A stretch of DNA of 64,000 nucleotides, taken from the UHGV virus genome UHGV-0060833; one strand, given 5' to 3'. The notes under the pieces were generated by a model. It made no database searches and was not told the origin of the DNA. It saw nothing but the letters and a program-made list of their open reading frames with translations. Of this stretch, positions 3,334-53,150 are shown piece after piece. The translations under genes and the position numbers were made by a program. Each line of letters begins with the position of its first letter. The first letter of the stretch is position 1. The stretch comes from a virus.

Positions 3334-4763
3334 TCCTCCTCATACGAAATATTAAAGGTGGAGTTTTCTGTATCCAGATAAACGAAATCGTAAAAGCCGT
3401 TGGACTCATTCCACTCGACAAATTCCAGATAAAAGTCGCGGAAATAACCCAGCGTTTCGATAAATGCCCAAACGTCTTTTTTCTTGATCAGGATGTACTT
3501 GCCGACACCGTTCGGATCAAAGAAATTTGAGTCGCGCCCAAATTTTGTTTCCAGCGCCGACTTCAGCTCATCAGTCACGTTCTCAATGGTCAGGCTTGCC
3601 GATATCCGCCCGGTGATGGTGATCTTAAAGGGTAGTTTTCTGACCTCTTTATACGAGAATTTCTTGTTCAACTCATTCGGCACCTTCTTAAAGGCAGCCA
3701 GGATCATTTCTTCAAGCTCTGACTGGCTTTTGTTTGGATGCCATCCTGAAATAAATATCTTATTGATATTCCGGACATTATAAGCACCATCTAATTTCTC
3801 TTGCTGGCCTTCGCCCCATGCCTTTACCCAGGACAGTCCCGGGATGTTACGCACCAGAAAATACGTATAGTCCCCGCCCCATACGACCTGATCATCATAG
3901 GCAAGGTAATATTGTGCACGATTACGTGTGATCTCCGTTGTTTCGGCATCGGTACCTGCGGTTATGGGTGTCGTTGTCTTAACTGAAATCAAATTAGCTA
4001 AATTAGCCGCAGAATCGACAGGCGTCAGATTTTGGCCAGCAACCAAGGTTATATCTCCGTTGGTGCACCATACCTTAAGTGTAATGGTCGAGCCTTCTGG
4101 CGGTATTTGCCCAATTAGCCCATCACCGAATCGAACCCCCAACTGCTCGGATGGTTTATAAAACTCAACGTAGACCTGGCTTTTACTACCGGCTAACCGG
4201 AACATAGTGCTGGAAGACCACTGCGTGGTCTTACCATCGGTCGTCACGAATACTTCCAGCTTATAGCAGACAGCAGTGAGAGCCTTTGATAACACGACTT
4301 CCAGAAATTCTTTGGCTGCCGTAACGGTATATGTCACCTCCTGGATTTCCAACTGTGCCACTTCTACCGTACCGGTGCCGTCAACCAACCTGCATACATC
4401 CATAGTCATGTAAGGGTACTGGTCGTCAGATATTAAAGGCATGTTTTTGGGGATTACCGCTGGGGCATCTTCACTTGTGGCGGTGATCTCAATCATCCCC
4501 GATGACGGTGTTGGCTTGGTACCAACGTAACTATTCGTTTCTGCCGCTGCCAAGATAGAGGAACGCCGCGTCGCGGTCGATATAAAGCCTTCAGCCAGCG
4601 CCGCATCGGCATACTGAAAGCACCTGTAGACAATCTGGGTAATAAACAATGTCAGCATCGAGACAAATTGAGAGCCGACAAACTTCGACCAGAATGAATC
4701 TTTCTCGACAAGCTCTTCAAACTCTGCACGAATACTGTCTTTAGTCGGTGTTGTTTTACTCAT
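3330..4763 (-). CDS. Baseplate protein (P1 BplA-like by position)
   Basis: 477-aa ORF; stop/start overlaps with both neighbours. Confidence 0.5.
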   Translation of the reverse strand: MSKTTPTKDSIRAEFEELVEKDSFWSKFVGSQFVSMLTLFITQIVYRCFQYADAALAEGFISTATRRSSILAAAETNSYVGTKPTPSSGMIEITATSEDAPAVIPKNMPLISDDQYPYMTMDVCRLVDGTGTVEVAQLEIQEVTYTVTAAKEFLEVVLSKALTAVCYKLEVFVTTDGKTTQWSSSTMFRLAGSKSQVYVEFYKPSEQLGVRFGDGLIGQIPPEGSTITLKVWCTNGDITLVAGQNLTPVDSAANLANLISVKTTTPITAGTDAETTEITRNRAQYYLAYDDQVVWGGDYTYFLVRNIPGLSWVKAWGEGQQEKLDGAYNVRNINKIFISGWHPNKSQSELEEMILAAFKKVPNELNKKFSYKEVRKLPFKITITGRISASLTIENVTDELKSALETKFGRDSNFFDPNGVGKYILIKKKDVWAFIETLGYFRDFYLEFVEWNESNGFYDFVYLDTENSTFNISYEEE

Positions 4764-5119
4764 AGCACCACGTCCTGTGTGATAGTTATATCCCTGATAC
4801 GAATGGATATTTTCAACTTATCAAAAGCATCTCCCTCGGCTACTGACAAGCCAGAAATCGGTATGTCAGATAAATCTACCGTCAGTTTTTGCAACAGCAT
4901 TGCCTCAACCGCAATTTGAACATGCGACAAGTTGGTCGGTTCGTGTTTAAACTGCGGTAAAACATTGCCCCATGACGGATCTCCGTATACCTCACCCTGA
5001 TAAGTGTTTAGCCACTCATATAAACGAGCGCCCCAGGCCTCCTCCTGGGACTCATACGTTTTTACGCCGGATAACTCCAGCGTCAGCAAAGGATCAATTT
5101 CGTTATTGTTGGCCATCAA
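4760..5119 (-). CDS. Small structural/morphogenetic protein (P1 PmgA-like by position)
   Basis: 119-aa ORF overlapping neighbours by 4 nt on each side. Confidence 0.45.
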   Translation of the reverse strand: MMANNNEIDPLLTLELSGVKTYESQEEAWGARLYEWLNTYQGEVYGDPSWGNVLPQFKHEPTNLSHVQIAVEAMLLQKLTVDLSDIPISGLSVAEGDAFDKLKISIRIRDITITQDVVL

Positions 5120-8100
5120 TCAACTCTCGCGTAGTCATTCATCAACGGATCATCAATTGACAGTGGTACCGTGCGCATAACGCCCGGCTGAGGCGTGCTG
5201 ACCTTTACGACAGTTCCCTGGCCTTTCGCCGAGTCTTTGGTGTGCTCTTCAATCCTGGCAAGTAATGAGGTCATCTGCGCAAACAGCCGCTTCGTTTCAC
5301 CATCAAGTGAAACGGTATTATCAGCCAACTGCATTGTCGGCTTGGCACCGGAACCACCAAGGTCACTAATAACCTGTCCGTCTATCTGCATACGACCGGT
5401 TGGTTGCTGCAAATCGTTGGCGGCAGTCGTCACCTGGGACGTGGAGGCTGGTTCAGGCGCATTATTTTTCCGCATCCCCGGCGAGTTGCGGAGTTTATCG
5501 AATAGTCCATCAATCCCCATTTGTGCGCCGAGTTGGTCAAAGTAACTTGAGTTGCTGGTCACCGGACGCGCCTCTTCAACTGGCATCGGAGTATCAACAT
5601 ACACATTGCCAGCTGCTGTTGCGGTCCCCTTCCCTCGTGCACGTTCTTCGAGCGTTCCCTGAACGACTTCCCGACGCATACCCCGGCCATTCATGAATTT
5701 GTTGACCAGATCGTTAACGCCAACAGCATTGCCGATTTTGTCTACCAGACCGCCTTTCTCAAACGGGCTATCACCAGGGGTAAACGCCAGGCCAGTAGAC
5801 TGATCGATAACAGCGTTATCAGGCAGTGGTCCCCTCACTCCATATTGCGCCCCACCCTGTGCTCCTGCTCCAGGTGTATAGATTTCACCACCTAAATAGC
5901 GAGCACGATGAGTATTGACCTTGATCGCGTACTCACGGTTTTCTTTCGATAAGTCACCTGTGCCTTTTTTCCACTTATTGATAGTGCCAAACCCAGCGTT
6001 ATATGCAGTGATGGCCTCGTTTAAGTCTCCATTGGCTTGCTTCAGATACTTGCTCATGAGAAGAGCCGCAGCTTCTGCCGATTTCACAGGATCAAACGAT
6101 TCACCTTCAGCTAAGCCAGTCTCTTCACGAGCAATCCCCGTGAACTGAAACATTCCCAGAGCACCGGTTTGGGATTTTGCATACGGATTACCACCAGATT
6201 CAGTTGCAGCAATCGCGTAAAGAGTGCCTTCTGGAAGACCATATTTATTCTCTAGTTCAGCAAAATACGGAGCCAACTTATCGAGATTTGCCTTACCTTC
6301 AGATCCAAGACTTCCGACTTTTACATCCAAGCGGCCATTGTTGTAGGTATCCGCAGCTTTCTGAATGTCATTCCTGGTGCCAGTGGTATTAAGCGACGAT
6401 GATGACGAGCTATTTTGACCAATAGCTTTATCAATTTTCTGCAACGCGCTATTGCCCGTTTCTGCGGCATTTGCATTGATAATCTGATTCGCAGTTTCTT
6501 TAACTGTTTTATTGCTATCTTTCGCCGTGTCCAGTGCCGCATTTATCACGCGGGTAACAATATTAGTCTGTTTGGCATCGGATTCAGTTTTAGAATCAGA
6601 TGTCTCCTGGTGGCTATTAACCGGAGCTTTTAACTCTGGAGCGATTTCTTTCGCATTAGCCTCGCTATTAACCGGAGCTTTTAACTCTGGAGCGATTTCT
6701 TTCGCATTAGCCTCGCCGATCGGATTGGGTATTTTTGATACAATCATTGCCGCAGGGGTATTTTTAACGGCATCAACCGCTGCATCTAATGCTTTACCAG
6801 GTAAATTTTTAACCCCATCCCAAATATTACCAGCCGCCTCTTTAATGTGTTTCCCTGGGTTCTTAATGAAATCAATTGCACTATCAATTGCATCACTGAA
6901 AACCTGTTTCAGGTTATCAACAGTAAAGAAGTCTTTGATGGCATCCAGCTTTTCAAGCAGCTTATTAGATGTATCGCTAAACCATGCTGAAACAGCATCA
7001 CCAATCTTTGCTGTGTAATCTTCGAACTTGGTAGAAATGGTGTCGCCAAGGTTAGAAATATATGTTTCTAAGTTGGTAATCCCACTATCAATGGCCTGGG
7101 CAATACTTTCCGTCGAAAATGATTGCAACATATTGCCGATATCCTCAAATCCAAGTGATTTGAGAACCTCACCAATGGCGCTGCTAATACCAGATACCAG
7201 TCCCCCCATATCAAGAACATTGGCTAACGTATAAGCGGCTTTTTGCTGGAATGATGGATCTTGTCCTGATTTAAGCCCAAACGCTCGACGTTGCGCTTCT
7301 GTATCATTCCAACCGGTTACCGCATCATAAATACCTCCAGCCACTGTGCCGACTAAGGGAATTGCGCGTAACGCCCCTTTACCAACTGCCTTTAATCCAA
7401 GTTTACCTGCTGCCCGGGCAGCCAAATCTCCACCTTCATGGGCGATAGTCTTCTTGCCACCACCGCGTAGCATTCCTACAAGTTTCTTTGCCCCCAGAGC
7501 GCCAAAAGCGAGTGCTCCAGCTTTTTTCAGCATGCCACGCCCCATTAACAACGACGCGACGCCACCGGCCCCCTTCCCTAACAGGCTAAATAGTTTGGAC
7601 AGCAAGCCGCCCTTCTTTTTCCCGGTGTTTTTGGCTATCTGATCAAGGGCGCTGAGAATCTTGTCATTGCCCTCTTTAATTTCGCTGGTCTGCTCCTGAA
7701 GTTCCTGAACTGTCCGTTTTTGGGTGTTAACCTGAACGACATCGGCACTATTTTGCGATTTACGCCTAAAAAAACCTTTTCTACGGCTGTTATCGTCATT
7801 GCCACGAATCACATCGGCAATAGACTTTCTGGCACCATTAAGCGATCCACCAACTTCTTTTGATATCCCGCCAAGCTCCTTCCCTGCTGCCCACAATGGA
7901 CCAGCAACGGCATAACCTAACGCATCAACGGCACGAGTCTCTGAAGGGTTACCTATGCCTTCAGCTACTTTTGACAGTTTTTTTAATAAACCTGATTCAG
8001 CATTTAGACGCTCATCATCCTCTTTGCGCCTGGCCTTTTCAGCACGTTCAGCACGGGCATCTTCCGCTGCGGCCTTACTCCCTGACTTTCCAATAAAACG

Positions 8101-8856
8101 ACCACGCGCATCGCGTTGGTTTTGGCTTTTTTGCGCACCGCCTTTTTGATCGAACATTTCGCGAGCGTGTTCGGCTGCTTCGGTCCGTTGCGCCTTTACA
8201 TCTTCTGTTATAGCCTTCTTGCGTCGTTTTTTACCCTTTCGCGTAGTTGATTTGGCCTGCGGTTCCTGTAGAGCAACATCCTCCTGAACTACACGAGAAA
8301 CGTCCCCTAAATTAAGCCGTTTCATTGCCTCAACAATAGGGTCCACTGATGGCGCATTGGCCACAAAGTCTGGCCGGGAATTTTCGATTGTTCGATTTAA
8401 TGCCGACACACTGCGAGATACTGGGTCAACCGTTGCAACGCGTTCCCCTTTCAAATCACGAGCGAGTTTGACCGTTTCTAACCGCTGTGCTTTAACATCC
8501 TCTGTTATTGCCTCTCTTCGTCTATTTGGGGGATTGTGCGCTGTTGGTGCAGCCTGCTGTTCACGGTTAGTGACTTTGTCCTCCCGTATACGAGAAACGT
8601 CCCCTAAATTAAGCCGTTTTATTGCGTCAACAATAGGGTCCACTGATGGCGCATTGGTCACAAAGTCAGGACGTGAATTTTCGATTGTGCGATTTAATGC
8701 CGACACACTGCGAGATACTGGGTCAACAGTTGCAACGCGTTCCCCTTTCAAATCTTCAACAGCTTCCCGAATACCTGCAAGCTCTTCCAGCTCTTTCGCG
8801 CTGGCGGTTTCAACTGTCCTTATAACATCGTCAATATTGGCGTTTTTTCTTTCCAT
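5116..8856 (-). CDS. sit: Sit-like virion transglycosylase with soluble lytic transglycosylase domain
   Basis: 1246-aa ORF; SLT motif AIAATESGGNPYAKSQTGALGMFQF; Gly/Ala/Lys-rich central region; internal repeats. Confidence 0.8.
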   Translation of the reverse strand: MERKNANIDDVIRTVETASAKELEELAGIREAVEDLKGERVATVDPVSRSVSALNRTIENSRPDFVTNAPSVDPIVDAIKRLNLGDVSRIREDKVTNREQQAAPTAHNPPNRRREAITEDVKAQRLETVKLARDLKGERVATVDPVSRSVSALNRTIENSRPDFVANAPSVDPIVEAMKRLNLGDVSRVVQEDVALQEPQAKSTTRKGKKRRKKAITEDVKAQRTEAAEHAREMFDQKGGAQKSQNQRDARGRFIGKSGSKAAAEDARAERAEKARRKEDDERLNAESGLLKKLSKVAEGIGNPSETRAVDALGYAVAGPLWAAGKELGGISKEVGGSLNGARKSIADVIRGNDDNSRRKGFFRRKSQNSADVVQVNTQKRTVQELQEQTSEIKEGNDKILSALDQIAKNTGKKKGGLLSKLFSLLGKGAGGVASLLMGRGMLKKAGALAFGALGAKKLVGMLRGGGKKTIAHEGGDLAARAAGKLGLKAVGKGALRAIPLVGTVAGGIYDAVTGWNDTEAQRRAFGLKSGQDPSFQQKAAYTLANVLDMGGLVSGISSAIGEVLKSLGFEDIGNMLQSFSTESIAQAIDSGITNLETYISNLGDTISTKFEDYTAKIGDAVSAWFSDTSNKLLEKLDAIKDFFTVDNLKQVFSDAIDSAIDFIKNPGKHIKEAAGNIWDGVKNLPGKALDAAVDAVKNTPAAMIVSKIPNPIGEANAKEIAPELKAPVNSEANAKEIAPELKAPVNSHQETSDSKTESDAKQTNIVTRVINAALDTAKDSNKTVKETANQIINANAAETGNSALQKIDKAIGQNSSSSSSLNTTGTRNDIQKAADTYNNGRLDVKVGSLGSEGKANLDKLAPYFAELENKYGLPEGTLYAIAATESGGNPYAKSQTGALGMFQFTGIAREETGLAEGESFDPVKSAEAAALLMSKYLKQANGDLNEAITAYNAGFGTINKWKKGTGDLSKENREYAIKVNTHRARYLGGEIYTPGAGAQGGAQYGVRGPLPDNAVIDQSTGLAFTPGDSPFEKGGLVDKIGNAVGVNDLVNKFMNGRGMRREVVQGTLEERARGKGTATAAGNVYVDTPMPVEEARPVTSNSSYFDQLGAQMGIDGLFDKLRNSPGMRKNNAPEPASTSQVTTAANDLQQPTGRMQIDGQVISDLGGSGAKPTMQLADNTVSLDGETKRLFAQMTSLLARIEEHTKDSAKGQGTVVKVSTPQPGVMRTVPLSIDDPLMNDYARVD
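6616..6717. repeat. Perfect-looking 51-bp tandem duplication inside sit
   Basis: attaaccggagcttttaactctggagcgatttctttcgcattagcctcgc occurs twice back to back; encodes a duplicated 17-aa unit (NAKEIAPELKAPVNSEA). Confidence 0.8.
8292..8753. repeat. Two copies of a ~165-bp direct repeat inside sit (8292-8455 and 8590-8753)
   Basis: Near-identical DNA blocks about 298 bp apart; protein shows ...KGERVATVDPVSRSVSALNRTIENSRPDFV.NAPSVDPIV.A.KRLNLGDVSR... twice. Confidence 0.75.
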
Positions 8857-8937
8857 GATCTTATCGCCTACCGTTTCGGTTTAAGTTTTTCTTCCAGTTT
8901 CTCCAACAGGAAAAACGCATAGGATTCAGTAAGCCTT

Positions 8938-9819
8938 TCAGCGTCCTGAATCGGTATACCCCCATACAAAACCAGGTTGGACACTAAGGTCTGATAGCTT
9001 TTCAATCCCCACCTGTGGAATGAAGTCGGTAGCCCGAAAGGGCACCCACAGACGGGTATATGCACCCTCTGTGGACTCCTTTTTATCCTGATTTGGGCAT
9101 TTATGCGGCGGGAGACGAAGACGCATTTCACCTTTATCGATGTAGCACGGTAAACCATGTTCGAGCTTTTCATGAGCCAGTCGGATGTGTGCCGCCAGCT
9201 TCATAAATTCAGTATCAATGGCCATCCGTTTAATCGTTTCATAACGACGCTCAGCCTGATCTTCACGAGTACCGCTAACATCGTTATAAAGCTCACACTG
9301 ATAAGCGAATTCCCAAAAACGCAAATCAACGATCGCTTCTTTGAATTCCGCGTCGTCTTCAGGTGGCAATGCTGCACGGCGCATCTCCAGCATTTCCATT
9401 GCCCAACCATCAAGCGGCACGATACGCCATTGATAAGGTACTCCCTCTACAGACACCTCAATATCGTCAATGAAAGGTTCCACTTCCAGGACCTGGATAT
9501 CTTCAGCCAGAGCATTCATATCGCAATCGTAATAATGCTCTTTACCGCAATGTTTACAGGTGTAGGTGAATGTCTCGACCGGTGTTTCACGGGAGCCGGT
9601 AAATATCCACCATAACGCGGTAATCCGGTCCTGCGCCGTCCATGTCAGGGGATCATGTTTCGCGGGTTCAGCCAGCAAGGCTTTTAAATACGCCGTTGTC
9701 TGTTGTTCTTGTTCCTCCGGTGTTATCGAGTTGAAACGCATCGCATCAGCAATATTTGGCTGACGGAACTGGATCAATTCAGTTGGCCGCGATGGTAGCG
9801 GGAAAAGAGGTAAAAGCAT
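8938..9819 (-). CDS. Hypothetical late protein (P1 PmgB-like by position)
   Basis: 293-aa ORF immediately upstream of sit, same strand; CxxC motif (CKHCGKEHYYDCD). Confidence 0.5.
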   Translation of the reverse strand: MLLPLFPLPSRPTELIQFRQPNIADAMRFNSITPEEQEQQTTAYLKALLAEPAKHDPLTWTAQDRITALWWIFTGSRETPVETFTYTCKHCGKEHYYDCDMNALAEDIQVLEVEPFIDDIEVSVEGVPYQWRIVPLDGWAMEMLEMRRAALPPEDDAEFKEAIVDLRFWEFAYQCELYNDVSGTREDQAERRYETIKRMAIDTEFMKLAAHIRLAHEKLEHGLPCYIDKGEMRLRLPPHKCPNQDKKESTEGAYTRLWVPFRATDFIPQVGIEKLSDLSVQPGFVWGYTDSGR

Positions 9820-25631: not shown

Positions 25632-25915
25632 GATGTGTGCTGGAGGGATGATGCAGGACCAGAATGTGCGATAGAGGGAAGTCGCATTGAATTATGTGTT
25701 GTGGAGGGATCGCTGGTATCAAATATGTGCGCTGAAGGGAAAGATAGAAGATTAGATGTGCGCTGGAGGGAAACTTGGATGGTTAGATGTGTGCTGGAGG
25801 GAATGTCTGGGCAAACTGCGTGGCGCAACCCTCCAGCGCACACCAAAAACAGGAAAATGGGCAGGCATTCCCGGCAGCGCACATTTTTCAAATGCAGCTG
25901 CCCTCCAGCACACAC
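25632..25915. repeat. incA iteron array: 9 RepA-binding iterons
   Basis: Six forward copies of (G)ATGTGYGCTGGAGGGA at ~31-bp spacing (25632, 25663, 25694, 25724, 25755, 25786) and three inverted copies (25829, 25868, 25901). Confidence 0.85.
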
Positions 25916-26776
25916 TTATTCGGGAAGTTTCAGCTTTGGATTGCGAGAATGGACGATTACAAAACTTTCCCGGCCTTTCTTCTCAATTGAACAGTCGAGA
26001 TAGCCGATTGTTTTAAGCTGTTCTATCGCTTTCTTAATGATACGGTTTTGCTCGCCAACAGCTGACTGCAAAGCCAGGCGCTCACGGATTCGCGCGAACG
26101 ATAGCGGCAACGGGTTCTGCGGAAGGCTTTCGATGAAAGTGTAAATGGCTTGTGCAGCTTCTTTCTTCGGAAGGGCACGCAAGGCGTGGTGTTGCAACAG
26201 AACGCGATAATCAAGCTGGAACAGCTCCCAGAGCTTCGAATCGGCCTCCAGCTCTATCAGATCAAGGTCAGCATCAAAACGCCCGACCTTCAGCAGACCA
26301 GTCTGATAGCCGCCTTTAGCATCTTTTCCGCGCTTAAAAGCGATACCCTTGTTACGCAAGCGTCCAAGTGATTCATGAATGGTTAAACGCAGTTTCGCAT
26401 CCAGACGTTTTGAGGGGAAACCACAGGCTTTAGCGAACTCCTGAAACGATAACTGGATGGTGTTTGAAGACAAGCCGTATTTGCTGAACGCGTAGATGAC
26501 ACCGATCCACGTTTTGAAATCAGTATCCATATCGAGTCGAGGACCGGTGATTTTAATATCATCGTAACCCTCGGCTTTAGCTATCTCCAGCTGGGAAAAC
26601 GCTTTGGTGGCATCAATCTCTTTACTTTCTCCTTTGCTCTTTGATGGCTTCGGCACGAATACCCCCAAGCGCATCAACGCTACAGGCTGCACAGTGTTGT
26701 TTGAATTAACTGTTAGTTCTTTTGCCTTACTTTCAATGTCTGCGTAAAGAATATCGGAGATAAATGATTGATTCAT
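25916..26776 (-). CDS. repA: RepA plasmid replication initiator
   Basis: 286-aa ORF bracketed by iteron arrays of the P1 type. Confidence 0.85.
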   Translation of the reverse strand: MNQSFISDILYADIESKAKELTVNSNNTVQPVALMRLGVFVPKPSKSKGESKEIDATKAFSQLEIAKAEGYDDIKITGPRLDMDTDFKTWIGVIYAFSKYGLSSNTIQLSFQEFAKACGFPSKRLDAKLRLTIHESLGRLRNKGIAFKRGKDAKGGYQTGLLKVGRFDADLDLIELEADSKLWELFQLDYRVLLQHHALRALPKKEAAQAIYTFIESLPQNPLPLSFARIRERLALQSAVGEQNRIIKKAIEQLKTIGYLDCSIEKKGRESFVIVHSRNPKLKLPE

Positions 26777-26779
26777 ATT

Positions 26780-27056
26780 ACTTTTTCCGAATTATGTGGA
26801 TAGTTTTTATAAGTGGTGATAACTACCCAGGCTTTCCCGTCAGCACACATCCTATATCCCGCCAGCACACATTAGCAACCCGTCAGCACACATTTTTATC
26901 CCTCCAGCACACATCGTTTTCCCTCCAGCACACATCGCGATACACTTCTAAGCCAGACGTGGCGCGGCCTGCAACGATCAGGGATCTATATGGATCTAAT
27001 TGGGATCTGTATGGACCTAATTATTGGATCTACCCAGTGGATAATGTGGATAAGTG
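26780..27056. other. Plasmid origin oriR (iterons, GATC cluster, DnaA boxes)
   Basis: Five GATC sites between 26976 and 27030; DnaA-box matches tgtggataa (27045-27053), agtggataa (27036-27044) and tgtggatag (26795-26803). Confidence 0.7.
26834..26936. repeat. incC iteron array: 5 iterons in the origin
   Basis: Five copies of TCCC(T/G)(C/T)CAGCACACAT at ~21-bp spacing upstream of repA. Confidence 0.85.

Positions 27057-51941: not shown

Positions 51942-53146
<1,205 letters not shown>

Positions 53147-53150
<4 letters not shown>

Follow-up and report, generated by a model that had tools for sequence, protein, structure and literature searches.

The window, a 64,000-nt stretch of the virus genome UHGV-0060833, carries a P1-like (Punavirus) phage-plasmid in which an orthologue of P1 sit is flanked by pmgB and pmgA, all on one strand and in the same order as in the tail/baseplate operon of P1. 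The genes and the single recognisable domain of the sit product are as follows:

8938 to 9819, minus strand: pmgB, 293 aa, directly upstream of sit, assigned by its match to phrog_1854 ('PmgB-like', E = 1e-154) and by P1 synteny.
5116 to 8856, minus strand: sit, encoding a 1246-aa orthologue of P1 Sit, the structural injection transglycosylase of Punavirus, with a lytic transglycosylase domain, assigned from the open reading frame list and translation.
5938 to 6267, minus strand: SLT domain of Sit, aa 864-973 (Pfam PF01464, E = 3.5e-27), located 3' of both repeats described below.
4760 to 5119, minus strand: pmgA, 119 aa, directly downstream of sit, assigned by its match to phrog_1896 and by P1 synteny.

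Alignment of the window Sit with its relatives revealed identities of 96% to P1, 98% to P7, 92% to phi456, 88% to SJ46 and 99% to JL22, with identity to the P1 and P7 proteins spanning the whole length except at the repeat gaps. All megablast matches fell on sit of Punavirus phages, and the best PHROG match of the protein was phrog_2533 (2545 bits). The SLT domain scored 94.7 bits against a Pfam cut-off of 21.3, an AIAATESGGNP motif with its Glu-Ser pair was found in the translation, and the matches of Sit in the PDB covered the SLT domain only and were to MltC-type transglycosylases. The PHROG matches of the N-terminal part carry the label 'unknown function' only. Two plus-strand open reading frames antisense to the repeats (6512-7018 and 8357-8884) were rejected as genes, having no family match.

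P1 Sit has been described as a tape measure protein (TMP) on the basis of its detection in virions by LC-MS/MS, its size and its helicity (PMC9024508). A cryo-EM study of P1, in whose map Sit itself is invisible, also names it as the TMP and gives ring counts of 52 for the tube and 53 for the sheath (PMC12810830), and the GenBank note for the P1 protein reads 'putative tail ruler'. The gene context fits this role, as a putative tail chaperone gene and a baseplate gene lie beside sit: PmgB has been proposed as the tape-measure chaperone (PMC9024508), and PmgA of P1 belongs to the baseplate wedge (PMC9024508, PMC12810830). AlphaFold modelling of the window protein gave mostly helical structure for aa 1-420 and 600-1000, at a pLDDT of only 56 and 43, respectively. 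A comparison of Sit with the curated tape-measure families of Pfam returned no match, only SLT-type and spurious weak ones; as TMPs are very diverse, the missing profile match weakens the filing of Sit in a family by sequence and not its functional assignment. With Sit as the tape measure of P1, a change in its length has a possible phenotype.

Two in-frame tandem repeats lengthen the window Sit, with coordinates as follows:

8458 to 8754, minus strand: 99-aa unit, copy 1, aa 35-133; the extra unit, missing from P1, P7, JL22 and SJ46.
8590 to 8754, minus strand: 165-nt core of copy 1, with its partner core in copy 2 at 8293-8457.
8161 to 8457, minus strand: 99-aa unit, copy 2, aa 134-232; the orthologue of the one unit in P1 and P7.
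6664 to 6714, minus strand: 17-aa unit EANAKEIAPELKAPVNS, first copy, aa 715-731.
6613 to 6663, minus strand: 17-aa unit EANAKEIAPELKAPVNS, second copy, aa 732-748; every nucleotide identical to the first.

The perfect in-frame 51-bp tandem noted in an earlier, sequence-only reading of this DNA was recovered at 100% identity between copies (TRF score 208), and the borders of its units share a 2-nt GC microhomology. The same reading had described a dispersed direct repeat of about 165 bp; the repeat is present but is not dispersed, as it forms the core of a contiguous head-to-tail tandem of 297 nt. A repeat search placed the 297-nt copies at 8159-8455 and 8456-8752 with an overall identity of 80%. 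The 165-nt core forms the 5' part of each unit and differs at 9 positions between copies (94.5% identity), while the remainder of the unit comprises 81 nt at 56% and then 51 nt at 73% identity, so that dS between copies is 0.13 in the core and approximately 1.05 in the rest of the unit. As protein, the 99-aa units are 72.7% identical (E = 6e-42). Comparison of the sequences indicates that neither repeat can be a chance match, and a self-comparison of Sit for older repeats found no other internal ones. P1, P7, JL22 and SJ46 each have one 99-aa unit and a single 17-aa unit, and alignment with these proteins and with phi456 Sit gave clean in-frame gaps of 99 aa and 17 aa. P1 Sit, given in the earlier reading as about 100 aa shorter, is 1140 aa long and thus 106 aa shorter than the window protein by alignment. 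Both repeats lie N-terminal of the SLT domain, that is, in the non-catalytic part of the protein to which they had been assigned. The AlphaFold models, of low confidence for both repeats, give the 99-aa unit, with its 5-7 prolines, a helix-break-helix structure and place the 17-aa unit, with 3 prolines, in a coil between helices at a pLDDT of about 30.

To place the window allele among its relatives, sit was identified in 462 of 5426 complete E. coli genomes. The 297-nt junction was present in 198 of these 462 and the 51-nt junction in 68, and a 133-nt tail specific to copy 1 was found in exactly the 198 genomes bearing the 297-nt junction. In PLSDB, 37 records contained the 51-nt junction and 139 of 478 matched copy 1 at an identity of at least 80%. 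A scan of genome contigs yielded two usable loci only. The anticipated variation in length between isolates was borne out, as 84 complete Sit sequences fell into 23 length classes between 1100 and 1280 aa; a Sit of 1280 aa is that of pVPS18EC0801-3. Copy number ranged from 1 to 3 for the 99-aa unit, whose two-copy allele occurs on at least five diverged backbones, and from 1 to 4 for the 17-aa unit, which forms nine distinct array patterns among relatives, the expanded arrays being confined to one backbone cluster. This variation has the form of a tandem-repeat polymorphism: the units are in frame, their lengths are multiples of 3, and their copy number differs among close relatives. A protein search with Sit aa 1-300 returned at least 21 matches, mostly partial E. 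coli proteins, and no distant relatives of Sit were among the matches listed. In the RefSeq records looked at, the start of sit was often placed downstream of copy 1 in duplicated alleles, and the long form of Sit is thus under-reported in databases. No account of sit repeat polymorphism was found in the part of the literature searched.

Two candidates from this survey were set aside. The E. fergusonii PLSDB record H169, at 50% identity a potential distant homologue with a copy-1-like tail, proved to be a frameshifted ordinary single-copy allele, and AR435, a possible triple by its two junction places, has a sit gene with two units encoding 1231 aa. The second junction place of AR435 lies elsewhere in its linear record of 120 kb, possibly a redundant assembly.

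Since short tandem repeats can be mis-assembled, one or both repeats might be single-copy units falsely expanded in the assembly. The same junctions nevertheless occur in 68 (51-nt) and 198 (297-nt) independent complete E. coli genomes, in 37 and approximately 139 PLSDB plasmids, and in IMG/VR contigs that include an identical A-A array (L015), while the two-unit junction is also present in the plaque-forming phage phi456 and the 102-nt array would fit within a normal Illumina read. Because the repeats recur in so many independent complete assemblies, the concern is answered at the population level and an artefact is highly improbable.

The expectation that the repeats are prone to recombination was supported by the identification of both products of an unequal crossover. 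L027 has a chimeric single-copy 99-aa unit, and the plasmid pEC15-3 has three 99-aa units, of which the middle one is a hybrid, and differs from its sister plasmid pEC18-3 by exactly 297 nt. Judging by this unit structure, L027 and pEC15-3 represent the two reciprocal outcomes of unequal crossing-over within the 165-nt core. The core divergence between paralogous copies is similar to the allelic core divergence, and exchange between copies would keep the 165-nt cores alike; the cores in turn serve as the substrate for the unequal homologous recombination that generates 1-, 2- and 3-copy alleles. The sequence-only reading had proposed a recent expansion of the N-terminal, non-catalytic part through the repeats, which fits the 51-nt unit and not the 99-aa unit. 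The 51-nt expansion can be dated as recent because its copies are identical and its expanded arrays are limited to a single cluster of backbones. This unit was probably duplicated at the 2-nt microhomology via slippage or illegitimate recombination. It lies in a segment predicted to be coil, with about 115 aa between it and the SLT domain further downstream, and the array now behaves as a minisatellite that moves between 1 and 4 copies and shuffles its T and A unit variants. The duplicated 99-aa unit near the N-terminus is instead a common allele (198 of 462), present on at least five backbones and with a tail dS of about 1, and appears to be older and widespread.

The origin of copy 1 is a separate question. 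It is plausible, at clearly less than even odds, that all of copy 1, or no more than its 132-nt tail, was imported by unequal or illegitimate recombination from a much more diverged Sit homologue outside the sampled set, with homologous recombination later distributing it among P1-like plasmids. Such an import would fit the tail dS of about 1.05 between copies alongside a copy-1 tail that is near-invariant (dS at most 0.03) in 21 duplicated alleles on at least five backbones, when orthologous copy-2 tails differ by a dS of about 0.10. It would also fit the mosaic structure of the window allele, whose copy-2 tail is of the JL22 type and unlike that of most other duplicated alleles. However, no single-copy allele with a copy-1-type (IREDKVTNREQQAAPTAHNPPNRRRE-type) tail was found, copy-1-specific sequence and the tandem junction occur in identical sets of genomes (198 and 198), and every copy-1-type PLSDB record among the matches listed contains two places. 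The 99-aa unit moreover matched only 3 clusters among 1.84 billion representative proteins in a phmmer search, which found no external donor for copy 1. Two of these three clusters look like P1-type Sit by length and match position.

We next considered what the repeats may mean for the tail. Through the two repeats, the non-catalytic part of the window Sit is 116 aa longer than that of the P7/JL22 type (1130 aa). P1 has about 21 Sit residues per tube ring, a scaling that is uncertain because a pure alpha-helix of 1140 aa at 1.5 Å per residue (171 nm) is shorter than the span of 52 rings at the usual ring rise of about 4 nm. The P1 tail itself has been quoted as 120 nm (PMC9024508). On this scaling, the extra 99 aa would correspond to approximately 4-5 more tube and sheath rings (15-19 nm) and each 17-aa unit to somewhat less than one ring. 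Given that tails of lambda, T4 and TP901-1 take their length from the TMP, and with about 21 residues per ring in P1, the tail of the window phage is likely to exceed the P1 and P7 tails by about 4-6 rings, and we infer by the same analogy that natural P1-like phages would differ in tail length. No tail-length figures for P1-like phages with long Sit were found in the part of the literature searched or in the phi456 paper. Taken together, our analysis suggests, with a probability of roughly 0.72, that the window holds a P1-like phage-plasmid whose sit gene carries two in-frame repeats, one a recent minisatellite and the other an older recombining allele, with a consequent effect on tail length expected by analogy.

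That the repeats are real but phenotypically silent, lying outside the segments by which the tail is measured, is a serious possibility to which we assign only a little less than an even chance. The 99-aa repeat could belong to an N-terminal module near the head that has a basic patch and binds, for example, a chaperone, the terminator or a DNA end, and the 17-aa array could act as a flexible linker preceding the SLT domain, with copy number drifting neutrally and at most altering the reach of the muralytic domain. The prolines and the coil or interrupted-helix models of both units (3 prolines and a pLDDT of about 30 for the 17-aa unit; 5-7 prolines and a low-confidence model for the 99-aa unit) are consistent with this, as are a 17-aa step smaller than one tube ring and the coexistence of many length classes at appreciable frequency, as near-neutral variation would give. 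On the other hand, it is established for lambda gpH, T4 gp29 and the TP901-1 TMP that tail length shifts proportionally when segments are deleted or duplicated in frame almost anywhere in the protein, and the N-terminal 420 aa or so of Sit otherwise hardly differ from allele to allele, which argues for constraint. The 17-aa array is improbable as a contingency locus in which copy number is selected to tune infection, for instance through tail or needle reach across O-antigen, capsule or periplasm of differing thickness. Nine array patterns within a single cluster of closely related backbones do point to frequent change, and nucleotide-identical units to recent events, but recombination alone accounts for the array patterns, and the long unit is always in frame and present in low copy number (1-4), so that on/off switching would not result. 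Phase-variable contingency loci combine a short unit in many copies with a shift of frame or promoter, whereas the sit units are 51 and 297 nt long, occur in 1-4 copies and remain in frame. Broader, and in our view unlikely, is the proposal that P1-like phage-plasmids in E. coli are polymorphic for tail length in quantised steps (Sit of 1100-1280 aa, at most about 8 tube rings) through unequal recombination at the two loci, with the two-unit form kept at approximately 40% because tail reach matters on differing host surface layers.

P1 is a staple of transduction work, and its relatives are phage-plasmids with a wide distribution and a cargo of resistance genes. The sit alleles, with 1-3 units of 99 aa and 1-4 units of 17 aa, some on otherwise near-identical backbones, constitute a natural series that could be used to test the ruler model of a long myophage tail without engineering, and the 297-nt and 51-nt differences could serve as typing markers for P1-like plasmids.

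Among known systems, the closest are the Sit proteins of P1 (YP_006507.1, 1140 aa) and P7 (AAQ07509.1, 1130 aa), which share synteny, SLT domain and C-terminus with the window Sit; relative to both, the window protein is extended by an additional 99-aa unit following residue 34 and by an additional 17-aa one, and it is without the 10-aa insertion that P1 has in the SLT domain. Sit of the Escherichia phage phi456 (WNL49372.1, 1231 aa) has the 99-aa tandem duplication in common with the window Sit and differs in its mid-protein backbone (92% identity) and in a diverged, unexpanded 17-aa segment. As phi456 is viable and forms plaques with two 99-aa units, a duplicated allele is functional. Lambda gpH, T4 gp29 and TP901-1 TMP resemble Sit in being long and encoded in tail clusters and are largely helical, as the low-confidence models predict for much of Sit, but have no detectable sequence relation to it, and the proportionality shown for them would extend to Sit by analogy. 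Tandem repeats are known to contribute to differences in TMP length (PMC13585406, citing Belcaid 2011, Katsura & Hendrix 1984 and Abuladze 1994), and copy-number variation of the sit repeats is an ordinary kind of tape-measure variation. Mycobacteriophage TMPs (Belcaid et al. 2011, cited in PMC13585406) gain and lose in-frame units in tandem among related phages, like sit; compared with them, sit has just two repeat loci at low copy number (1-3 and 1-4), and its variation is a within-species polymorphism of a contractile-tailed phage-plasmid in which recombination intermediates are caught directly. Finally, mycobacteriophage TM4 Tmp and T5 Pb2 (references 55 and 56 of PMC9024508) combine ruler and peptidoglycan hydrolase in one polypeptide, as does Sit, in which the domain is of the SLT type (PF01464) and the repeats lie outside it.

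Both repeats lie in a single open reading frame whose product is the orthologue of P1 Sit, as judged by identity and synteny. Among phage records, Punavirus sit (P1, P7, RCS47, JL22, phi456, and SJ46) was the sole megablast target, at 91-98% nucleotide identity, and the window protein is 96%, 98%, and 99% identical to Sit from P1 (1140 aa), P7 (1130 aa), and JL22 (1130 aa), respectively. Matches to solved structures were restricted to the SLT lytic transglycosylase domain, and the flanking genes are arranged as in P1:

5116..8856, minus strand: sit, 1246 aa, holding both repeats
Sit aa 864-973: SLT domain (PF01464, E = 3.5e-27)
8938-9819: pmgB (phrog_1854), flanking sit
4760-5119: pmgA homologue, 119 aa, flanking sit

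The P1 GenBank note labels Sit a 'putative tail ruler'. The protein has been found in P1 virions by LC-MS/MS and was assigned as the tape measure protein (TMP) from its size, N-terminal helicity, and gene position, with PmgB proposed as its chaperone (Gonzales et al. 2022, PMC9024508), and a 2026 cryo-EM study of P1 gives Sit as the TMP, not resolved in the structure (PMC12810830).

A repeat search and Tandem Repeats Finder (score 208) confirmed the perfect in-frame 51-bp tandem noticed in the sequence-only reading, with copies at 6613-6663 and 6664-6714 that are 100% identical. On the coding strand the unit, GAGGCTAATGCGAAAGAAATCGCTCCAGAGTTAAAAGCTCCGGTTAATAGC, encodes the 17-aa peptide EANAKEIAPELKAPVNS, which occupies Sit aa 715-731 and 732-748. 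The dinucleotide GC stands just before the array and again at the end of every unit, giving 2-nt microhomology at the borders. When aligned to the window protein, all five relatives (P1, P7, JL22, phi456, and SJ46) are gapped opposite the extra unit, by 17 aa in P1, P7, and JL22 and by slightly more in phi456 and SJ46, where the segment has diverged. Two versions of the unit, ITPELK (T) and IAPELK (A), make up the nine array patterns seen across the window and its relatives.

Patterns of the 17-aa array in Sit (L-numbers are sit loci from plasmids, phages, and contigs)
T: P1 and others
A: L016, L017
A-A: this window, L015
T-A: L020
T-A-A: L008
T-A'-T: L009
T-A-T: L048
A-A-T: L078
T-A-A-T: pVPS18EC0801-3 (Sit of 1280 aa)

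In a survey of 84 loci with a complete sit gene (phage records, plasmids, IMG/VR contigs, and two species-representative genome contigs), arrays of at least two units were confined to the window's own backbone cluster and always accompanied the 99-aa duplication. Given this restriction and the nucleotide identity of the copies, the array fits a history of recent, repeated expansion and contraction.

The second repeat consists of 297-nt copies arranged head-to-tail at 8159-8455 and 8456-8752 with 80% identity; in frame, the units span 8161-8457 (aa 134-232, copy 2) and 8458-8754 (aa 35-133, copy 1) and are 72.7% identical as protein (E = 6e-42). Similarity between the copies varies with position, with 9 mismatches in the first 165 nt (94.5% identity), 56% identity over the following 81 nt, and 73% over the final 51 nt. 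The ~165-bp repeat described as dispersed, with two occurrences spaced by ~300 bp, thus corresponds to the conserved core of two tandem 99-aa units; the repeat is there, and it is not dispersed. Self-comparison of the window Sit yielded no internal repeat beyond the 17-aa and 99-aa tandems. In P1, P7, JL22, and SJ46, window residues 35-133 are missing as a single clean 99-aa gap, and phi456 Sit has both 99-aa units with an unexpanded 17-aa segment. At 106 aa less than the window protein, P1 Sit agrees with the difference of about 100 aa given in the sequence-only reading.

The frequency of each tandem was examined using 50-nt queries centred on its junction; as each half is 25 nt and the megablast word 28, a single-copy allele cannot seed a match. 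Of 5426 complete E. coli genomes, 68 carry the 51-nt junction (as many as 3 times in one record), 198 the 297-nt junction, and 462 the sit 3' end; the 51-nt junction was also detected in 37 PLSDB plasmids. The 99-aa duplication is thus present in ~43%, and an expanded 17-aa array in ~15%, of sit-carrying complete E. coli genomes. A tblastn search of PLSDB with copy 1 returned 478 records, 139 of which match at ≥80% identity, and both units are present in every copy-1-type plasmid among the matches listed. Both repeats are common and are not artefacts, and by analogy the same probably holds for the window's own isolate. Among the proteins encoded by the 84 loci, 76 are distinct; they fall into 23 length classes between 1100 and 1280 aa, bearing out the expectation that Sit length varies between isolates.

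Two further indel hot spots were observed in sit. Alleles of the phi456/SJ46 type have 8 extra residues, KLATKGLG, in a Gly/Lys/Ala-rich stretch at 7408-7488 (aa 457-483), and those of the P1 type have a 10-aa insertion, TLTRSPNGKL, within the SLT domain at ~6172 (aa 895). In duplicated alleles, RefSeq/PGAP often places the sit start 3' of copy 1, as in L008 (NZ_CP010173.1), annotated at 1157 aa versus a 1273-aa open frame from MERKNANI, and many E. coli genome records have the annotation 'none' under the 297-nt junction; the long form is therefore under-annotated.

Tandem repeats were also observed elsewhere in the window. A perfect 12-nt x 3.3 tandem at 52613-52652 encodes a TAEL-type peptide repeat inside a 402-aa ORF (51942..53150, minus strand) that sits between 1038-aa and 520-aa ORFs, and the 1038-, 402-, and 520-aa trio resembles a type IC hsdR/hsdS/hsdM restriction-modification system. 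The EcoR124I/EcoR124II specificity switch is a matter of two versus three TAEL copies. Iteron-like tandems at 25725-25803 (31 nt x 2.5) and 26833-26937 (21 nt x 4.9) surround a 286-aa ORF (25916..26776), an arrangement that looks like P1 repA with its incC/incA iterons. ARAGORN detected three tRNA genes (Asn, Thr, and Met) at 33493-33646 and 35078-35153.

The two 99-aa units have a mosaic history. Between copies 1 and 2, the 55-codon core has a dS of 0.13 and a dN of 0.025, versus a dS of ~1.05 and a dN of 0.43 for the 44-codon tail. Across the 84 loci, the median paralogous dS of the core (0.20) is not above allelic divergence (0.19), and the duplication may be ancient, with its cores homogenised by exchange. 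Alternatively, the copy-1 tail, which is near-invariant in 21 duplicated alleles (dS ≤0.03) and stands at a dS of ~1 from every copy-2 or single-copy tail, may derive from an unsampled diverged relative, the resulting allele then spreading by recombination; duplicated alleles occur in at least five backbone clusters that, with the repeats set aside, share 80-98% identity with the window. A 133-nt stretch specific to copy 1 was found in exactly the 198 E. coli genomes with the 297-nt junction, and searching 1.84 billion representative proteins with the 99-aa unit matched three clusters, two of which look like P1-type Sit from their length and match position. The proposal of recent expansion therefore stands for the 51-nt unit, with its identical copies in one backbone cluster, and fails for the 99-aa unit, given its tail dS of ~1 and its spread over backbones. 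The window's copy-2 tail is of the JL22/common single-copy type and differs from that of most other duplicated alleles, indicating that its sit allele is itself recombinant.

This mosaic history is accompanied by both products expected of unequal crossover in the 165-nt core. In L027, a single-copy allele, the unit is chimeric, with copy-1 core markers (VTNAP and IVDAIK) and a copy-2 tail. Plasmid pEC15-3 (L096, NZ_CP060921.1) carries the unit three times, with the reciprocal hybrid of copy-2 core and copy-1 tail in the middle. Its sister from the same study, pEC18-3 (L097, NZ_CP060916.1), has two units in an otherwise identical sit, and the plasmids (91,360 versus 91,063 bp) differ by exactly 297 nt, or one unit. 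In both plasmids sit is frameshifted and annotated as a pseudogene, which may reflect defective elements or sequencing error. Frameshifts or premature stops in sit were also seen in P1-like L004, L050, L052, L082, L092, L093, and L095, and disruption by IS2 or IS26 has been published (PMC6906374); on these grounds, many P1-like phage-plasmids may be tail-defective.

According to cited literature on lambda gpH, T4 gp29, and TP901-1, in-frame changes in TMP length change tail length proportionally. The P1 tail has 52 tube and 53 sheath rings (PMC12810830), and dividing 1140 Sit residues by the 52 tube rings plus two tube-like baseplate rings gives ~21 residues per ring. On this scale, or at 1.5 Å per helical residue, 99 aa would correspond to ~15-19 nm, or 4-5 rings, and each 17-aa unit to ~0.6-0.8 ring. 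By analogy, a tail built with the window Sit would exceed the P7/JL22 type by ~5-6 rings. Tube rings usually rise by ~4 nm. At that rise, 52 tube rings (PMC12810830) come to about 210 nm, versus the 120 nm quoted for the P1 tail in PMC9024508, and this disagreement between two P1 structure papers affects any residues-per-nm scaling of Sit. Single-sequence AlphaFold models were weak, with interrupted helices for aa 1-420 (pLDDT 56) and coil between helices for the 17-aa array (pLDDT about 30), and it is therefore possible that one or both segments lie outside the measuring part of Sit. As phi456, whose 1231-aa Sit has two 99-aa units, forms plaques, the duplicated protein is functional.

A literature search of incomplete coverage found no description of sit repeat polymorphism in P1-like elements. 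The main value of these alleles is as a natural series with which the determination of P1 tail length could be tested. The two length polymorphisms are themselves ordinary and of a kind already described for TMPs, tandem repeats being acknowledged as one way in which TMPs come to differ in length (PMC13585406, citing Belcaid 2011).
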